DNA from: a virus
Direction: 5' to 3' (one strand)
Length of the DNA stretch: 10,350 nt
IMG/VR virus record: IMGVR_UViG_3300015608_001846
Span: 21,651 to 32,000 of that record
A program made the position numbers and the translations under genes. Shown piece by piece: positions 237 to 10,350 of this stretch (the first letter of the stretch is position 1; every line of letters begins with the position of its first letter). The notes beneath the pieces are model-generated. The model was not told the DNA's origin and ran no database searches. It saw only the letters and a program-made list of their open reading frames with translations.

Positions 237-1262
237 TCATGGCTTCTTGGCCTGCTCGAGGTACCACGCGCGCGCTCGATTGCTGCAAGCCTGAACAGCT
301 TTCTTCTGGTCGAGCCCAGAAGCTTCCATCTGAGCCGTCGTCTCCTTGATGATGTCTTTGCTGATCCACGCAAGGAACGCTCCAACGTTCCTAAGCTCAA
401 ACTGCAGCTCGCCGCTGTTGACAGCTCGAACCCCTTGTTCGAGCCTGGCCGGCGTCAGGACCATCTGCGAGAAGTCATCGAGACCCTGGGCCACAGCTGG
501 ATCCAGCTGAGCCGGTCGTTCCTTGGCAACGACCTTGTGCTTGTCGCCCTTGGCCTTGAAACACAGGTTGCTGAAGTTCCTGTAGCCGCCATGTGCCTCG
601 TCCACCGGATAGAAGACAAGCCCCTCGCCGGTGCCCTCAATCCCGAACGTCTGCTTCGTCCAGGGGTCACATGCCTCGACCTGTGCCACCCGATCGTTGA
701 TACGATCCAACACCGGCTGGAGTTGCTCGCTCGGCAGCGACCAGTCGATGTCGTACGACTCGTCTGAGTCCCAAGGAATGATCTTGACACTCGCGTCACA
801 GAGGCCGCGCACGACAGTTTGAAAGAGCGCCTCGAGGGCCTGAGGTTGAGAAAGCAAGGTGTCATCACCTTCGACGTAGTCAACGTAGCGGGCAGCGAAC
901 ACAGCAAAGGTCCGTTGTGGGATCTGATTGACAGCTACGCCCTTTTGGATGCCCGGTCCACACCATTCGCCATAGAAGACGACGGGACGTGCCAGACGGT
1001 CGACGTTGACATAGGGCTCGATGGTGTTTTTGACCCACGCAGCAAAACCAACGTTGTCAGACGTCGGAGTGATGACGTTGGTCCGAGAGAACGCAGTCAC
1101 TGTTCCATTGGGATCGATCCGGATGCCGGCGTTGGTCCCATGGAGCTTGACCTTGGCCCGATACCTGACAATGTTGCTTGATCCCAGTAGTTCTGGGTAC
1201 CTCAAGACGTTCTTGCGAACGTTGTGAAAGGCTTCGATGTCTGTCCAGGGTACGTGTGTCAT
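237..1262 (-). CDS. ATP-dependent RNA ligase, Rnl2 (T4 gp24.1/RnlB) type
   Basis: 341-aa ORF with ATG at 1262. Covalent nucleotidyltransferase motifs occur in the correct order: motif I KLHGTN (K39, nt 1131-1148), FYGEWCGPGIQKG, EGLVFYP (motif IV), FKAKGDKH (motif V). From memory these align closely with T4 Rnl2 (EKIHGTN, VFGEFAGPGIQKN, EGYVLKP, IKCKNSKF). The length and the helical C-terminal domain also fit Rnl2 rather than Rnl1 or a DNA ligase. Confidence 0.9.
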   Translation of the reverse strand: MTHVPWTDIEAFHNVRKNVLRYPELLGSSNIVRYRAKVKLHGTNAGIRIDPNGTVTAFSRTNVITPTSDNVGFAAWVKNTIEPYVNVDRLARPVVFYGEWCGPGIQKGVAVNQIPQRTFAVFAARYVDYVEGDDTLLSQPQALEALFQTVVRGLCDASVKIIPWDSDESYDIDWSLPSEQLQPVLDRINDRVAQVEACDPWTKQTFGIEGTGEGLVFYPVDEAHGGYRNFSNLCFKAKGDKHKVVAKERPAQLDPAVAQGLDDFSQMVLTPARLEQGVRAVNSGELQFELRNVGAFLAWISKDIIKETTAQMEASGLDQKKAVQACSNRARAWYLEQAKKP

Positions 1263-1357
1263 ATGAATTTCTCTTACGTCTTTTCATCTAGACACAAAAC
1301 ATTTGCTATCGCAATGGTCACGGCTTGCGTTTTTTGAAGGAGCATCCATAAGCCCAA

Positions 1358-1642
1358 TCATTCACCGCCGAGAGTGATGGCCGCAAATGCCCTGACGGCG
1401 TTCGTCATCGATTTTTCTGACATGCACAGTTCATCGCCCAACATCAGACGCGTATAACCTAGCGCAACGTGGAAGGCGACATCGCTGATGTCAGAGCACG
1501 ACGGATCACCACCATTCACCATGGTGTTGAGGAAACGCGAGGCGACGACAGCTTCGGAGTCGACCTTGATGATGGTACAGACATAGACGCGGTCAATCTC
1601 GAGCACTGTTCCGGCTGGAGCCGTCGACGGTGCAATCATCAT
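1358..1642 (-). CDS. hypothetical protein (94 aa; start uncertain)
   Basis: Minus-strand ORF. The track start at 1717 is GTG and adds a Cys/Arg-rich N-terminus, so I prefer the ATG-ATG at 1642/1639 (MMIAPSTAPAGTVLEIDRVYV...). An alternative ATG lies at 1708. No clear SD and no motif. It is co-directional with its neighbours and a better candidate than the antisense ORF 1469-1705. Confidence 0.35.
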   Translation of the reverse strand: MMIAPSTAPAGTVLEIDRVYVCTIIKVDSEAVVASRFLNTMVNGGDPSCSDISDVAFHVALGYTRLMLGDELCMSEKSMTNAVRAFAAITLGGE

Positions 1643-1885
1643 GAAACTCGAACAACCTGGCGTTGTATCGCAGGACCTCAGGCGAGGGCATGCTCGTCGG
1701 CTTAGCATCGGTTGCACCGGTGTGGTATCAAAAGTGAACCTTCAGCTCAGGTTCCCTGTTGAGCCAGCCCCGCATCAGATCCTTGATCGCCTTCGTCGAT
1801 AGCTTCACGATTAAATCCTAACGTTGATGATGGATTAAAACCCTGTCCGTGACCCAAAGGAGCCCCAGAGGGACCCACGTGGGCA

Positions 1886-2107
1886 CTAGACCTCAATGTC
1901 ACAATTCTCGTAGGTGACCTTGACGCGGCGGACGGATGACATTGCAAAACCAGGTTTTGCAATGTGAATGCATCCGACGAACTCAAGGTCGTACACAGCG
2001 TCATTGATCGTCCAAACCTGAACGTGTGCCTTCTTGACGTTGACGAACTTAAGCCTGGCGACAGGGTCTGACTGCCCCGTCCAGAGTTCCTTCAACCACT
2101 TGAGCAT
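1886..2107 (-). CDS. hypothetical small protein (73 aa)
   Basis: The track start at 2122 is GTG. The first ATG is at 2107 (MLKWLKELWTGQSDPV...), 31 nt downstream of the Thg1-like stop codon. The composition looks beta-rich. No motif. Confidence 0.5.
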   Translation of the reverse strand: MLKWLKELWTGQSDPVARLKFVNVKKAHVQVWTINDAVYDLEFVGCIHIAKPGFAMSSVRRVKVTYENCDIEV

Positions 2108-2138
2108 AGTTGACCATAACACCCCAATTGTCCAGCTT

Positions 2139-2909
2139 TCACTCTTCGATGAGCGCTAGGTGGCGGTTGACGTAGTCACGGTCACGAGAAAACACTGGGA
2201 TGTTGTGGTCGACGTACCAGATCCCGCGAGCGACTGCAACCTCGCCCGTCTCAGAGTCTTGATACGTCCCATCGACCGTTCGAACGATGCAGCTGCCTCG
2301 CGTCCACCGTTGTTCCAGCATGTTCCACGGATGCCCTGCCTGTTCACACATCTTGACGAGCTCAGTGCCTGGCTTGCCTTGGCACTGTGCGTGTGAAAAC
2401 AGCGATCGAGCCAGCTGCTGCACCGAGTTGCGTGCACAGTCTTGCTGCCTCCACAGGAAGTAGTTGCAAACGTCCGATTCGGGCACGACAAACGCCCGGG
2501 CATCGAACACAGCAGGCCTGATGCTGCTGTCACGCCAGATCTTGTACGACTGTGCTGTAAACGTCGCGCTAGCGACGGCGGCGGCCACAGAACACATCTT
2601 CTGGACCTGTCGATCGAACCACGATGACGAGTTGAACCGCTTGTAGCCATGGACCAACAGCGAGATCTCATCTGATTGTGTGTATGCCAGCTGCGCTCCC
2701 TGCACCTCCTCACACAGCTGCTGTGCCGTTGCCACCATCACGTCAGCCAGGCTGGTGTCGAATGGTCGCTGGCACCCTCGAGTGTATGTATGAAACGCCT
2801 TGCCGTCGATCCTGATGATGATCGGCAGTCGATCGGGCAGCACCGTCCGGCTAGCCTCCTCGTAGCGTTTCATCCTGTCGCCCAGTGAAGTTCGATCGCT
2901 GTTTCCCAT
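2139..2909 (-). CDS. Thg1-like protein (tRNA-His guanylyltransferase family, 3'-5' nucleotidyltransferase / reverse polymerase)
   Basis: 256-aa ORF with ATG at 2909. Family motifs are present in order: MKRYE, IIRIDGKAFHTYT, AYTQSDEISLLV, FDARAFVVP, YFLWRQQDCARNS, TRGSCIV. From memory these correspond to human/yeast Thg1 VVRLDGRNFHRF, AYGQSDEYSFVF, FDGRVVVYP, YLSWRQADCHINN, YRKGTVL. The catalytic carboxylate positions (D of RIDG, D/E of QSDE) are conserved. Confidence 0.9.
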   Translation of the reverse strand: MGNSDRTSLGDRMKRYEEASRTVLPDRLPIIIRIDGKAFHTYTRGCQRPFDTSLADVMVATAQQLCEEVQGAQLAYTQSDEISLLVHGYKRFNSSSWFDRQVQKMCSVAAAVASATFTAQSYKIWRDSSIRPAVFDARAFVVPESDVCNYFLWRQQDCARNSVQQLARSLFSHAQCQGKPGTELVKMCEQAGHPWNMLEQRWTRGSCIVRTVDGTYQDSETGEVAVARGIWYVDHNIPVFSRDRDYVNRHLALIEE

Positions 2910-3906: not shown

Positions 3907-4668
3907 CTAAATACTGGTCAACATCTCTGAGATGACGCCCAAGGTGTCGTCTGGATCTCGGACTGAAATGCACTGAACGCCGCTGAGGTGAACTACGCTG
4001 TCATTCCCACCTGGAAACAACGCGTCACCGATAAACACTGCATCGCCCTTTTGAAGGGCTAACATCCGCAGCAGTCGCTCGACGCCGTATCGCTTGTCAA
4101 AGCCTGCTAGGGTGACATCAACCGACGTCATGCCACCGACTCGAGCAGCAAACTGTTCAGGCAACGCTTGGGCAATCGCATCGCGAAGAGCGATCTTCTT
4201 CGAAGACGTTGGGTCCCAACGACGTTTTTCATCGACAGGAGCACGTTGGCCCAGTGCCGACAAGGTCACCTGTGAGCCACGAACTTCGATGCGTTCTCCC
4301 CATGCGTCCGGGATTTCAGGCAGTCCAACGCCTGAGGCGTGTGTGGCTGTCAAGATGGCTTTTTTGATCTGCTCAACGTCACGTTCGCTCAAAAGGTGTT
4401 GATACAGCGAACTCCAGGAAGACCCATCGTGTGTGTAGCAAGCAGCACCGCTCGTCGGTAGCAGGTACATCTGTTGCGCTAGCTCTGGGTCGACAGATGA
4501 CACCGGCTCGATCAATTGCGACAACAACTGTTGCAAGTTACACCCAGAAACAACGGCGACCGTCGACCGCGCCAGCAGGCTAGCAACCGCAACTGCCATC
4601 TTTTCAGATACGGGTTGCTTGCTCTCAGCCAAGGTTCCATCGAGATCAAAGATGATCAGTTTTTTCAT
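3907..4668 (-). CDS. HAD-IIB superfamily enzyme, eukaryotic-type phosphomannomutase (PMM)-like
   Basis: 253 aa. HAD motif I is FDLDGTL (residues 7-13), followed by VAVVSG and motif IV GDALFPGGND. The cap-domain stretch is RIEVRGSQVTLSALGQ...GGMTSVDVTLAGFDKRYG. From memory these align with human PMM2 (FDVDGTL, GVVGGSD, FIEFRNGMLNVSPIGR, SFDVFPDGWDKRY, FFGDKTMPGGND). The start ATG overlaps the upstream stop (ATGA). Confidence 0.85.
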   Translation of the reverse strand: MKKLIIFDLDGTLAESKQPVSEKMAVAVASLLARSTVAVVSGCNLQQLLSQLIEPVSSVDPELAQQMYLLPTSGAACYTHDGSSWSSLYQHLLSERDVEQIKKAILTATHASGVGLPEIPDAWGERIEVRGSQVTLSALGQRAPVDEKRRWDPTSSKKIALRDAIAQALPEQFAARVGGMTSVDVTLAGFDKRYGVERLLRMLALQKGDAVFIGDALFPGGNDSVVHLSGVQCISVRDPDDTLGVISEMLTSI

Positions 4669-6885: not shown

Positions 6886-7123
6886 CGTCCCTAAATAGGA
6901 CAGGGCGACCTGACATTTCCGACCAACGTGCAGCTAACTGACGCTCAAAGTCATTGGTCTGCTGTCGTTTGGTGAGAGGGTGTCGGTTTGAAAACGCGCT
7001 GCGCTCGTCGGGAGGCAACACCTTCAACATCTCCTTCTTGATGACTAAGAAATCATCAACGTCCGAAGCGTATGAAAAAACGTAATCAAGGGCCTGTATG
7101 ACCTTCGTTGACATCGCGATCAT
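6875..7123 (-). CDS. hypothetical small protein (82 aa; start uncertain)
   Basis: Preferred ATG is at 7123 (MIAMSTKVIQALDYV...) with GAGGGG just upstream. Alternatives are ATG 7114 and ATG 7195. The latter would add a basic low-complexity N-terminus and overlap the Nudix gene by 110 nt. With the 7123 start it overlaps the Nudix 3' end by 38 nt. Confidence 0.45.
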   Translation of the reverse strand: MIAMSTKVIQALDYVFSYASDVDDFLVIKKEMLKVLPPDERSAFSNRHPLTKRQQTNDFERQLAARWSEMSGRPVLFRDDAT

Positions 7124-7598
7124 GGTCCCCTCGCACGAGTTTGGTAAGAAACGTAGTGATGTGTTCCGCCTGGTATGCTTGCAGCCGCGGCGCATTTACT
7201 GCGTCTGAAACGATGTCATCAACGTCGAACCATCGAGCGTCTGCGACCTCGCAGTCAGGGTCGTCGTGGATGGGCTCCTGCAGTGGGTCTACAGGCGATG
7301 CAGCGAAGGTGACGAGCGTCTTTGATTCGTTCTTCAGTTCGATCCGGATGTCTGGCAACCTGCGTCCGACTACGACGCCCAACCCGGTTTCTTCTCGAGT
7401 TTCACGGACTGCGCATTCCTCAAGCGTTTCGTCGGCATGGATGTGACCCTTTGGTATGCCCCACGAGTCCTTGTGAGCAAACTGTTTGATCAACAGGACT
7501 TGCAAGCGGCCTGGGACGGTAGGGTTCACACGCGATGTCAGCGTACCGCATGACGTCGTTTTCTGAACCTTGTTCTTCGACTTCATGTTATGTATCAT
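7086..7598 (-). CDS. Nudix hydrolase
   Basis: 170 aa. The Nudix box GX5EX7REUXEEXGU is complete: GHIHADETLEECAVRETREETGL. ATG at 7598 (alternative 7586). No obvious SD. Substrate specificity cannot be read from the sequence. Confidence 0.85.
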   Translation of the reverse strand: MIHNMKSKNKVQKTTSCGTLTSRVNPTVPGRLQVLLIKQFAHKDSWGIPKGHIHADETLEECAVRETREETGLGVVVGRRLPDIRIELKNESKTLVTFAASPVDPLQEPIHDDPDCEVADARWFDVDDIVSDAVNAPRLQAYQAEHITTFLTKLVRGDHDRDVNEGHTGP

Positions 7599-7712: not shown

Positions 7713-8306
7713 ATGAGAATCGGATTGATTGCGGGTAGCTATAGCCCATACCACGCCGGGCACGATGGGTTAGTGCGCCTGGCATCGAGCGAGTGTGACG
7801 AAGTCCATCTTTTTGTTTCGCTAAGCGACCGTGCCCGACCGGGTGAGATCGCAGTCCTAGGCACTGACAAGGCCAAGATCTGGCAGACGATCATCGAACC
7901 ATCCTTGCCCGACAACGTCGAGGTGACGTACGGAGGCAGTCCCATCGGTAACATCTGGAAGGAGCTCGGCAATGCTAACATCGCCGGATCGGAGGACACC
8001 TTCATCCTGTACGGAGACGTCGACGACGCCGCTACCAATTTTTCTAAGGACTTCCTGACAAAGTACGCCGGCGACCTCTACAGGCGTGGCCTCATCGAGG
8101 TGCGCCCAGTCAAACGCACCGATACCGTCGACGTTTCAGGGACGAGGATGCGTCAGTACCTCGCAGCCGGCGATGCCAAGTCGTTCATCGCTGGCCTTCC
8201 ACGATCGATCGATGGCCAGCGAGTGTGGGACATCTTGTCAGCGACGGCGGCATCTAGACCCACCGTCAAGACAACGGCTCGAGCCAAGAAGCCTACGAAG
8301 CGCTGA
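7713..8306 (+). CDS. nicotinamide/nicotinate mononucleotide adenylyltransferase-like protein (NadM-type, HxGH nucleotidyltransferase superfamily)
   Basis: 197 aa and the only plus-strand gene. The N-terminal GSYSPYHAGH matches the NMNAT signature GxFxPxHxGH. VSGTRMRQYLAAGDAKSFIAGLP matches the second signature (ISSTxxR). From memory it resembles archaeal NadM [21 protein letters not shown]. The C-terminal tail is basic (KTTARAKKPTKR). Confidence 0.75.
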   Translation: MRIGLIAGSYSPYHAGHDGLVRLASSECDEVHLFVSLSDRARPGEIAVLGTDKAKIWQTIIEPSLPDNVEVTYGGSPIGNIWKELGNANIAGSEDTFILYGDVDDAATNFSKDFLTKYAGDLYRRGLIEVRPVKRTDTVDVSGTRMRQYLAAGDAKSFIAGLPRSIDGQRVWDILSATAASRPTVKTTARAKKPTKR

Positions 8307-9102
8307 CGATTCCCAATCGTGATTCGACGTAATCACGTCGTAGGATGTACTTGGGTGACATCTTGGTGATACAGACGAGTCGAAAGGCCCGATCGTAGTC
8401 AGCGGCGGGTACCCGCAGGAAGCCCATGGACGTCGTCCCATTGATTGCTGCGTACTTTCCCAGCACCTTGGAGGGCGCCAGTTCACGTTGCAACTCATTG
8501 CGAATGTGTTCGGGCAACGTGTTGTACAGCTTGCCAGCAGACACCTCGCCGGTGTCAAAGGCTTCCCACATCGATTCATCTAACATCGCGTCTGTCGTTG
8601 ACCTGATGATCGATCGCTTGACACGGCCGAACATTTTCATCCCAATTGCACCAACCTTGAAAGAGGCGATCGAACCCAAGTCAGTCGTCACCTCCCATGA
8701 CTTGATCTCTTCGTTGAGTCCAGGTAGGTCACAGTCAAACTGCGTCGGACCATCGATGATCGAGTGTCGAGTCCTTAGAGCCTTTTCGCCGTAGCCTTCG
8801 TAGCTCAGCGTCGGTTGCTGGTTGAGCGTTCGTTCCTCATCTGTCCACAACGTGCCATCGCAGTCCATCAATACGGTCAACAGCTGGTGCAGCGTCAAGC
8901 GATTGGGATCTTGTATTCGTAACAACCTGCCATCGATCAACCTGATCTTCGTCTTTGCTGTTGAACGCTGTCGCGAGGCGCCCTTGACGTTGGTCGCAGC
9001 CTCCAACGACTGGAGCGCTCGTTGCCGCTGCGCCAACAGCTCTACCTTGTCACGTTCAATGAAGTCCTTGAAGGTCTGACACCGATGATAGGTGCACTCC
9101 AT
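8293..9102 (-). CDS. hypothetical protein (269 aa) carrying a DxDGT-like motif
   Basis: The track start at 9132 is GTG. ATG at 9102 has a strong SD (atGGAGGgtactATG). It contains LLTVLMDCDGTLW (nt 8845-8865 region), which resembles HAD/DxDxT motif I, but I could not identify motifs II-IV. Its 3' end overlaps the convergent NMNAT-like gene by 14 nt. Confidence 0.7.
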   Translation of the reverse strand: MECTYHRCQTFKDFIERDKVELLAQRQRALQSLEAATNVKGASRQRSTAKTKIRLIDGRLLRIQDPNRLTLHQLLTVLMDCDGTLWTDEERTLNQQPTLSYEGYGEKALRTRHSIIDGPTQFDCDLPGLNEEIKSWEVTTDLGSIASFKVGAIGMKMFGRVKRSIIRSTTDAMLDESMWEAFDTGEVSAGKLYNTLPEHIRNELQRELAPSKVLGKYAAINGTTSMGFLRVPAADYDRAFRLVCITKMSPKYILRRDYVESRLGIVSAS

Positions 9103-9183: not shown

Positions 9184-10350
9184 CTACTGTGGGCCTGAAC
9201 CAAAGGTGGCGAGGATAAAGCGAGGACGACCTTGGGTCACCTTTTCGAACTTCAGAGCGTTGGCCAACTGGTCACGTGGGATTGCCATGAAGCCTTGTGG
9301 GTTGACGATGAAGACACCGTCGACCTGCGAAAAGACGTTGTCGATCTTGATGCTCTGGAACCATTCGTTGAAGAACGCCCGCGGGTCGTCGAACGCCTTG
9401 TCCTTCAACGTCGCCATCGCGATGTCGATCTCTTCGAAGTCTGTTAAGATGTCCTCGCGGCCGGTCGCCTTCTTGACACGCTTGGCCACGTCGATGAAGG
9501 TTGATTTGTCGACGCGGGTCTCCTTGTCGTTGAGTGCAACGCGGGTGTCGGGCTGTGCAACGTCCTTCTTGTCGGGATCGATGCGGTTCTTGATGTTGCT
9601 GACGATTGTCAACACTGACCTGAGGTCGATGAACTTTCCCTTGCTGACCTCGCCCTTGCTGACGATCATCTCATACTCGTCTTCAACGAATGACTTGACA
9701 AACTCGAGCTTCTTGGCGTCGTCAGGTGTCAGGGTATCGCTCAGTTTCACCTTGTCACAGACGACAGTGAAGTTTTTCAACTGTTGCATGACGCTGTTCA
9801 ACCGCCGCCTCGAGTGTTCGAAGGCCTTGAGTCCTTCGGTTCCCGGACGGATCGTCTCTGACTTGCTGAGCAGTTGTTTGACCTCCCAGGCCGACCCATC
9901 GGTCATGACAACGTCGTATGAGACACTTCCGCCTTGCACCTGTCCGCCAAAGACGTACGCTAGCCATTCTTCACCGGGCCCGGTACCCATCGCTGCCTGC
10001 TCGTTATCATCGCCTGCCGCCTTCGAGCCGTACGACAGCTTCGTACGTTTGACCTGTGCGGGCCAGGCGTGCCACTTCATGAATGAGATCTTGTTGATGT
10101 CCAGGACGCCCTTCTTGTCCTTCGAAGGCAGCTGTTTATCGTCAGTCGTTCGAGCTCCCGATCCTCCACGCCGCTCTCGACGGTAGCCTCTGACCTCAGG
10201 GTTGTATGCAGCATAACGAGCTTCAGCCTTGTCAAGCAACTGCTCGAGCGTCTCTCGACGCTTGGCTGCCAAGGACGGACTGTAGTCGTACTCTGGCTGT
10301 GACTTCAGTTGCTTGCGCGCCTTTTCTTCACCGATGCCCTGCTTACGTAG
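9184..10350 (-). CDS. large hypothetical protein with a PD-(D/E)xK nuclease-like motif (5' end outside the window)
   Basis: The frame is open from 9184 to the window edge. The track start at 10272 is only a TTG, and the upstream codons read LRKQGIGEEKARKQLKSQPEYDYSPS with no stop, so the gene is probably truncated. The motif GTGPGEEWLAYVFGGQVQGGSVSYDVVMTDGSAWEVKQL (nt ~9877-9987) has the E...D...ExK spacing typical of restriction-endonuclease-fold nucleases. The CDS call is confident (~0.8). The nuclease call is tentative (~0.4). Confidence 0.6.
   Translation of the reverse strand, partial: LRKQGIGEEKARKQLKSQPEYDYSPSLAAKRRETLEQLLDKAEARYAAYNPEVRGYRRERRGGSGARTTDDKQLPSKDKKGVLDINKISFMKWHAWPAQVKRTKLSYGSKAAGDDNEQAAMGTGPGEEWLAYVFGGQVQGGSVSYDVVMTDGSAWEVKQLLSKSETIRPGTEGLKAFEHSRRRLNSVMQQLKNFTVVCDKVKLSDTLTPDDAKKLEFVKSFVEDEYEMIVSKGEVSKGKFIDLRSVLTIVSNIKNRIDPDKKDVAQPDTRVALNDKETRVDKSTFIDVAKRVKKATGREDILTDFEEIDIAMATLKDKAFDDPRAFFNEWFQSIKIDNVFSQVDGVFIVNPQGFMAIPRDQLANALKFEKVTQGRPRFILATFGSGPQ

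Follow-up and report, generated by a model that had tools for sequence, protein, structure and literature searches.

Loosely linked genes for a Thg1-like protein and an Rnl2-like RNA ligase in a probable jumbo phage

The two genes and their products

A 10,350-nucleotide (nt) stretch of viral DNA (positions 21,651 to 32,000 of IMG/VR virus record IMGVR_UViG_3300015608_001846; hereafter, the window) encodes two enzymes of RNA-end chemistry, a Thg1-like protein (TLP) and an Rnl2-like ATP-dependent RNA ligase. The first-pass annotation of the window, made from the letters alone, had placed the two on the same strand about 880 nt apart and proposed that they constitute a non-canonical tRNA repair module. 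Both open reading frames (ORFs) were found with all the motifs it had quoted, 876 nt apart on the minus strand, which carries all but one of the sizeable ORFs in the window. Taken singly, each enzyme has good support for a role in the repair of tRNA, and the linkage of the two genes is loose and facultative, unlike that of a conserved operon. The two ORFs, with the evidence for each (aa, amino acids), are as follows.

2139..2909, minus strand: predicted TLP of the bacterial type, 256 aa; Pfam, PHROG and PDB matches, catalytic residues
237..1262, minus strand: predicted Rnl2-like ATP-dependent RNA ligase, 341 aa, with a nucleotidyltransferase domain and a putative helical C-terminal domain; Pfam and PHROG matches, motifs, AlphaFold (AF2) model

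Profile and structure searches bore out both family assignments far above chance, with PF04446 and PDB entry 4kgk for the TLP and PF09414 and a Foldseek match to T4 Rnl2 for the ligase. The TLP ORF contains the motifs RIDGKAFH, QSDEIS and WRQQDC, and it matches the Pfam Thg1 family (PF04446) over residues 11–143 (110 bits, 1e-31; cut-off 29.2) and PHROG 4717, 'tRNA-His guanylyltransferase', over its full length (1.4e-85). The closest solved structure is that of the Bacillus thuringiensis TLP (BtTLP; PDB 4kgk), matched over residues 8–251 (E 8.5e-63), whereas the eukaryotic Thg1 structures 3wbz and 3otb are matched at about 3e-14 and in the N-terminal half only. In the alignment to 3otb, residues D35, D80 and E81 of the TLP correspond to the catalytic metal-binding residues D29, D76 and E77 of human Thg1, and all three are invariant across 21 TLP homologues. 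The HINNLYN motif is missing, the TLP reading DCARNSVQ at the position of DCHINNLY in eukaryotic Thg1. Because of this substitution, the full-length match to 4kgk and the weaker, N-terminal match to eukaryotic Thg1, the protein is classed on its sequence as a bacterial-type member of the Thg1 superfamily, nearer to bacterial and archaeal TLPs than to eukaryotic Thg1. The exact protein is present on 15 metagenomic contigs, the longest of which, ENA ERZ27282949 k141_2353102, has 322,887 bp.

BtTLP kinetically favours 5′-truncated tRNAs of any type, to which it adds nucleotides in a templated manner, and is not confined to tRNA-His (PMC3061083). The window TLP resembles BtTLP (PDB 4kgk/4kgm) and other bacterial and archaeal TLPs in its full-length homology, in the same three catalytic carboxylates and in the absence of HINNLYN; given the shared carboxylates and the missing motif, templated 3′-5′ repair of 5′-truncated tRNAs would be expected of it as well (PMC3061083). 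It differs from BtTLP in being viral, from a jumbo phage, and is about 45–50% identical to it as judged by eye. We predict that it is a templated 3′-5′ nucleotidyl transferase acting on tRNA 5′ ends.

The ligase ORF contains the motifs KLHGTN, GEWCGPGIQKG, EGLVF and FKAKG and matches Pfam RNA_ligase (PF09414; 49.5 bits, 6.9e-13; cut-off 27) and, over its full length, PHROG 548, 'RNA ligase' (6e-45). Residues K39 (motif I), E99 (motif III), E213 (motif IV) and K236/K238 (motif V) are invariant in 28 homologues. The AF2 model of the protein has a pLDDT of 91, and its top PDB matches in Foldseek are the full-length T4 Rnl2 entries 2hvr and 2hvq (E 2e-11), followed by TbREL1 and Naegleria Rnl. Over the 363–368 columns aligned with full-length T4 Rnl2, the TM score is only 0.42–0.47 and the rmsd about 15–17 Å, as would be expected if the two domains are differently oriented in the model and in the T4 enzyme.

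The ligase thus has its best structural match in T4 RNA ligase 2 (PDB 2hvq/2hvr), with which it shares motifs I, III, IV and V and, as it appears, the two-domain architecture. In contrast, the sequences are only distantly similar: phmmer aligns the N-terminal part alone (E 5e-6), and identity in the structural alignment is 18–20%. Pfam T4_Rnl2_C has no match in the window ligase and a weak one in a homologue from another viral locus (L112), and the score against the Rnl2 equivalog model of NCBIfam, TIGR02307, is 27.4 bits against a cut-off of 197. Since the similarity to T4 Rnl2 is weak and the score lies far under that cut-off, the protein is classed as an Rnl2-like ligase of a separate subfamily and not as an orthologue of T4 Rnl2. 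Members of this subfamily occur in jumbo phages, in cyanobacterial tRNA arrays and in Myxococcota. Homologues of the TLP and of the ligase are each found on many contigs of 320–480 kb.

Between strains of the window virus, identity is about 99.8% outside one replaced segment, which takes in the final ~100 residues of the ligase together with the downstream ORFs. This segment extends over window positions ~1–545 and past the window start (L001 12365–13225 compared with L002/L003) and contains divergent sequence and different small genes. It looks like the boundary of a recombination cassette within the ligase gene, at its C-terminal domain. As the C-terminal part of the ligase is swapped between strains, the ligase varies independently of the TLP.

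Association with tRNA and linkage of the two genes

The association of each enzyme with tRNA was assessed from its genomic surroundings. The TLP-centred sample comprised 80 IMG/VR loci, equivalent to 40 clusters at 70% identity, and the ligase-centred sample comprised 146 loci, 66 viral and 80 metagenomic (28 of the latter at least 10 kb long), alongside 80 cellular ligase loci. Of the 80 cellular loci, 31 carry at least three tRNA genes, with 662 tRNAs in all (52 per 100 kb), and in 22 of the 80 there are tRNAs within 2 kb on both sides of the ligase. Nearly all nearby tRNAs (306 of 312) are co-oriented with the ligase gene. The hosts are mainly filamentous cyanobacteria and also Myxococcota, and the ligase gene sits within extended arrays of tRNA genes.

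The cellular loci are numbered L240–L319 (arrays are found, for example, in L247, L250, L256, L261, L263, L265 and L266); L268 is from Acaryochloris marina (NC_009925, 284671–305612). Judged by eye from sequence, ORFs near the ligase in the cyanobacterial arrays look Macro-, NADAR- and PARG-like. The accessible literature on such arrays names only RtcB and an HNH endonuclease, and not this ligase.

Among viruses, tRNA genes are present in 21 of the 66 ligase loci compared with 9 of the 80 TLP loci. Two viral ligases, L112:9689-10966(+) and L123:9692-10957(+), are fused to an N-terminal tRNA_bind domain (PF01588, of the Trbp111/EMAP type), and both of these lineages also carry a TLP 2–4 kb from the fused ligase.

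Within two genes on either side of the TLP, counted over the 40 dereplicated viral clusters, we found PheRS-like proteins in four clusters, RlaP in two, PTH2 in two, a CCA-adding enzyme in one, Metallophos phosphoesterases in three and HD_4 phosphoesterases in three, plus other ligase types. In addition, CCA-adding enzymes lie 6–9 kb from the TLP in phages CcrColossus and MD18. The surroundings of viral TLPs are thus variable sets of tRNA-maintenance genes, and the window shows one variant.

Several of these neighbourhoods are compact. A single-chain PheRS-like protein (tRNA-synt_2d plus FDX-ACB) is encoded directly downstream of the TLP in four loci (L011:10863-11927, L012:10834-11877, L017:10839-11903 and L023:11008-12126), a pairing of which we found no mention in the related literature. 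L049:9225-12442 encodes RlaP, the TLP, a small ORF and a CCA-adding enzyme, with a tRNA-Lys at 8470, and L032:8169-11791 encodes an ATP-dependent ligase, an ORF, the TLP and RlaP.

The relatives closest to the window hold the same block with and without the ligase. In L087 and L088, whose TLPs are 54–55% identical to that of the window, the TLP is followed by four variable genes (an EamA-like gene and others), the ligase and a 5′-3′ exonuclease. L089, which has the closest TLP (68% identical), retains the block and the same exonuclease without the ligase. No ligase was found within 10 kb of the TLP in the 80 viral TLP loci by a profile of the window subfamily (E ≤ 10) or by tblastn (E ≤ 1), a profile narrow enough to miss other ligase families: one TLP neighbour matched PF09414 at 2e-27, and L032 has its ATP-dependent ligase by the TLP. 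Searches with phmmer, hhalign and motifs put no identity on the neighbour matching PF09414.

Viewed from the ligase, a TLP lies within 10 kb on the same strand in 5 of the 66 viral loci (L094, L112, L123, L136 and L144). In L144 the two genes are directly adjacent, the TLP starting ~190–225 nt after the ligase. A TLP was likewise found near the ligase in 4 of the 80 metagenomic loci (L160/L161, L188 and L199), so that linkage within 10 kb on the same strand is seen in 9 of the 146 viral or metagenomic ligase-centred loci; no TLP was found in the 80 cellular ligase loci. The linked TLPs are mutually only 22–38% identical and therefore represent ~5–6 divergent lineages. As a rough null, we took ~10% of ligase phages to have a TLP and random placement in a 150–300-kb genome to bring it within 10 kb in ~10% of cases, which predicts about one linked locus among the ~94 well-flanked ligase loci, against the ~5–6 divergent lineages observed. 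Proximity is thus enriched over the rough expectation yet is the minority state. No third gene is common to the linked lineages, and the intervening genes differ in every one of them.

At the level of whole genomes, both genes occur in about 20 of 50,697 phage records (counted with a chimeric query, 164 + 206 − 350) against 0.67 expected under independence, an expectation that does not control for genome size. About 9 of these ~20 records are Caulobacter phages and several are roseophages; two phage groups and large genomes account for most of the excess. In four complete genomes the two genes are separated by ~36–42 kb: in Phaeobacter phage MD18 the TLP is at 63.1 kb and the ligase at 100.5 kb, in DSS3_MAL1 they are ~38 kb apart, and in Xoo-sp13 and Stenotrophomonas phage CM1 ~42 kb apart. 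In CcrColossus the ligase lies more than 20 kb from the TLP, and two more IMG/VR contigs carry both genes at ~46 kb and 365 kb. The TLP of MD18 (MT270409.1) is annotated merely as a hypothetical protein (63117–63935), and ARAGORN detects an unannotated tRNA-His in the same phage (L158 15858–15933), with T at −1, a G1.U72 pair and an encoded CCA.

The counts for co-occurrence of the two families, to which the first-pass annotation had tied its proposal, lie above rough expectation in whole records and in neighbourhoods (~20 against 0.67, and ~5–6 linked lineages against ~1), although clade and genome size may account for much of the excess in whole records. Adjacency is not kept across the lineages that carry the genes.

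The spacer and the surrounding accessory genes

The first-pass annotation had described the spacer between the two genes as a 243-nt non-coding gap and one doubtful ORF. A gap of about that size is present (~246 nt), flanked by two small orphan ORFs rather than one:

1886..2122, minus strand: small orphan ORF of 78 aa (73 aa in the contig gene calls) immediately downstream of the TLP, coding doubtful; no Pfam or PHROG match
1640..1885, minus strand: apparently non-coding gap (~246 nt) with a terminator-like hairpin at 1754–1736; no Rfam match, no tRNA
1358..1639, minus strand: small orphan ORF just upstream of the ligase, 93 aa as called, or 119 aa (1358..1717) from an upstream GTG; called on all contigs

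Neither ORF has a homologue in the related loci, and the one next to the ligase yields sub-threshold family matches only. Inside the ORF next to the TLP, at window positions ~1940–1960, lies a palindrome, GCAAAACCT/AGGTTTTGC, which in other strains is expanded by 3 nt or 18 nt, both in frame; the 880-nt spacer is otherwise identical among strains. The gap itself is 100% identical among them, so conservation and covariation are uninformative there. The sequence at 1640–1890 folds somewhat better than shuffled sequence (z = −2.1), and the region contains six terminator-like sites where 2.8 ± 1.4 are expected. Rfam gave no match in the window or in L001 at gathering thresholds, nor in positions 1200–2200 at E ≤ 1.

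The window most likely belongs to a block of accessory genes in an uncultured jumbo phage. A megablast search with the complete window sequence gave no match among phages, and most of the neighbouring unknown proteins had no match in PHROG or Pfam. The recognizable neighbours are a GH25 lysozyme, a 5′-3′ exonuclease, two NUDIX proteins, a UDPGP protein, Fpg and HhH-GPD. In L001, L087, L088 and L089, the exonuclease (PF02739/PF01367) is encoded 0–2 genes downstream of the ligase slot. No tRNA gene was found in the window or in six 20-kb loci of the same virus. As the first-pass annotation had stated, no P-loop polynucleotide kinase is visible in the window: P-loop kinases are absent from the scanned window ORFs and from the Pfam list for 10 kb on either side in the parent contig, and the same holds for Pnkp and Rnl1-type domains in the window ORFs and within ±10 kb. 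RlaP, a CCA-adding enzyme and PTH2 were not detected within ~21 kb around the TLP and ligase of the window.

A NUDIX hydrolase, 7086-7598(-), and an NMN-adenylyltransferase-like protein of the cytidylyltransferase fold, 7713-8306(+), form a divergent pair that is kept in L087 and L088, and NAMPT and NadM-Nudix genes lie near the ligase in L144 and phage MD18, a hint that genes for NAD+ salvage travel within this accessory region. Base-excision repair genes (HhH-GPD, Fpg/Nei), UDP-glucose pyrophosphorylase and GH25 lysozyme also belong to the block (L001 18535–20189, 17450–18538 and 15496–16392). A HAD-IIB/phosphomannomutase-like protein is encoded at window 3907-4668(-), and relatives add a PEP mutase/isocitrate lyase-like gene. 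We considered this HAD-IIB protein as a candidate RNA 3′-phosphatase and rejected it, its matches and the neighbouring UDPGP gene pointing to sugar-phosphate metabolism. At the far end of the window, 9184-10350(-) and its continuation in L001 (1048–3726) encode a large protein of 892 aa of unknown function. Its N-terminal 400 residues share ~30% identity with a Microcystis phage Mel-JY01 protein annotated 'cytidylyltransferase like protein' and with ORFs of two uncultured phages of 460–480 kb, which are its sole matches in the phage collection.

Interpretation and comparison with known systems

Taken together, we think it probable that the TLP and the ligase are two separate enzymes of tRNA maintenance or salvage, loosely and not obligatorily linked, in a jumbo-phage accessory block. 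The TLP would activate the 5′-monophosphate end of a tRNA with ATP or GTP (adenylylation or guanylylation) and then add the missing nucleotides in the 3′-5′ direction up to position +1, with the 3′ strand of the acceptor stem as template, rebuilding 5′-truncated tRNAs; we infer this step because of the ~50% identity to the characterized BtTLP and the intact catalytic residues. The ligase would reseal breaks with 3′-OH and 5′-phosphate ends in folded tRNA through lysyl-AMP and App-RNA steps, as suggested by its intact motifs, its Rnl2 fold and the tRNA context of its subfamily. Since no end-healing kinase or phosphatase is encoded nearby, the ligase would be best suited to breaks left by metal-dependent nucleases (5′-P, 3′-OH). 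The pair would accordingly suit lesions of that type, or 5′ exonucleolytic trimming, and not the 2′,3′-cyclic-phosphate and 5′-OH ends of PrrC-type cleavage. Both enzymes would plausibly protect the tRNA pool of the host or of the phage during infection, and they need not act on the same lesion.

Four points weigh against this interpretation. We found in the literature no biochemistry or genetics of a phage TLP and no biochemistry of the ligase subfamily; the tRNA complement is seen only within ~21 kb of the ~323-kb contig; the 5′-3′ exonuclease adjoins the ligase throughout the clade, which makes a role on DNA or RNA-DNA hybrids possible; and the proximity of the two genes exceeds expectation in several divergent lineages, so that some functional coupling may exist.

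Such coupling, in its full form, would make the two enzymes steps of one pathway against a host nuclease that damages the tRNA 5′ end or acceptor stem, with the TLP filling a gap in the stem in the 3′-5′ direction and the ligase sealing the remaining nick. Chemically, this sequence of reactions could work, since App-RNA is an intermediate of both enzymes: the first step of the TLP makes App-RNA, which Rnl2 seals, as established chemistry has it and as suggested earlier (PMC2904730). The same-strand linkage within 10 kb in ~5–6 divergent viral lineages, with direct adjacency in L144, and the ~20 phage records with both genes against 0.67 expected also speak for it. However, the finished TLP product bears a 5′-triphosphate, which Rnl2 cannot use directly, and there is no need for coupling, since no break is left to ligate once a 5′ end has been rebuilt. 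The genomic evidence is also largely adverse: the narrow profile and tblastn found no ligase in the 80 viral TLP loci, and none of the 80 cellular ligase loci holds a TLP; the closest relative, L089, lacks the ligase; the distance between the genes is ~36–42 kb in four complete genomes and exceeds 20 kb in CcrColossus; the genome-level excess comes mostly from two phage groups and large genomes; no third partner is shared; and the C-terminal part of the ligase is swapped between strains independently of the TLP. We therefore regard a single coupled pathway as unlikely. An elaborated version, in which the TLP extends the 5′ side of the gap, one of the neighbouring NUDIX proteins might trim the 5′-triphosphate and the ligase seals, would be a tRNA-stem gap-repair pathway assembled repeatedly by large phages against some host nuclease of acceptor stems, with the same ligase subfamily serving the same tRNA-salvage purpose in the cyanobacterial arrays; we rate this as doubtful at best.

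Two further explanations would separate the enzymes altogether. The TLP might add or restore G-1 on phage or host tRNA-His, with the ligase unrelated to it; databases label the family tRNA-His guanylyltransferase, and bacterial TLPs can add a templated G-1 opposite C73 (PMC3061083). As the sole explanation this appears very unlikely, in that a tRNA-His is near only 1 of the 80 viral TLP loci, the tRNA-His genes seen in related loci carry a genomically encoded G-1, and BtTLP kinetically prefers truncated tRNAs of any type (PMC3061083). TLPs are moreover common in phages of Caulobacter, Brevundimonas, Ruegeria and Sinorhizobium; the tRNA-His of Caulobacter has no G-1 (PMC3064791), and in the tRNA-His of MD18 no G-1 is encoded and position 1 forms a G1.U72 pair. 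Alternatively, the ligase may belong to non-tRNA metabolism, for instance sealing nicks in RNA-containing duplexes together with the adjacent 5′-3′ exonuclease in replication or repair, in which case its proximity to the TLP would be synteny of an early-gene block. In its favour, the exonuclease is 0–2 genes away from the ligase slot, on the downstream side, in L001, L087, L088 and L089, and the Fpg and HhH-GPD repair genes are nearby. Rnl2-type enzymes, as established for T4 Rnl2, seal duplex nicks including those in RNA-DNA hybrids, which also counts for such a role. In contrast, the independent association of the ligase with cellular tRNA genes is strong, some members are fused to tRNA_bind domains, and the exonuclease persists in L089, where the ligase is missing, so that a non-tRNA role strikes us as improbable indeed.

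Thus, of the tRNA repair module proposed in the first-pass annotation, the tRNA-directed role of each enzyme is well supported, whereas the case for a dedicated pair is weak: linkage is facultative, fill-in of a 5′ end needs no ligase, there is no third partner, and the idea had been published. Anantharaman, Iyer and Aravind described bacterial Thg1 neighbourhoods with PNK, Macro and sometimes an RNA ligase in 2010, and suggested that the Thg1 proteins of phage 201phi2-1 and of mimivirus take part in RNA repair (PMC2904730). In 2021, Iyer et al. included Thg1, as a sporadically occurring enzyme that restores 5′ ends, in their list for jumbo phages, beside Rnl1, Rnl2, RtcB, RlaP and CCA-adding enzymes (PMC7824862). 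The concept of tRNA repair by phage Thg1 and RNA ligases is thus already in the literature, as a proposal.

The locus and its relatives supply natural variants of one block with and without the ligase, fusions to tRNA-binding domains and directly adjacent pairs, a set that makes the cooperation of 3′-5′ polymerization and nick sealing in tRNA salvage directly testable. The occurrence of the ligase subfamily inside cyanobacterial tRNA operons provides an independent, experimentally tractable handle on its substrate and may merit separate follow-up.

Compared with the T4 pair of Pnkp and Rnl1, which counters PrrC, the likeness lies in phage-encoded restoration of cleaved tRNA by an ATP-dependent ligase, here predicted from genes. 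The window differs in having neither Pnkp, nor another kinase or phosphatase, nor Rnl1; its ligase is Rnl2-like, and its second enzyme is a 3′-5′ polymerase, not an end-healing enzyme. Nor does its TLP have the adjacent polynucleotide kinase that is the commonest partner at bacterial TLP loci (PMC2904730). The closest parallel is with the jumbo-phage sets of Iyer et al. 2021 (Rnl1/Rnl2/RtcB, RlaP, CCA-adding enzyme, Thg1 and PTH2), which represent the same repertoire and the same proposed purpose, restoration of tRNA ends after attack by host RNases (PMC7824862). Of the members of these sets, the 21 kb seen of the window virus contain the TLP and the Rnl2-like ligase alone. L049, with RlaP, TLP and CCA-adding enzyme, and L032, with ligase, ORF, TLP and RlaP, fit the picture drawn in 2021.

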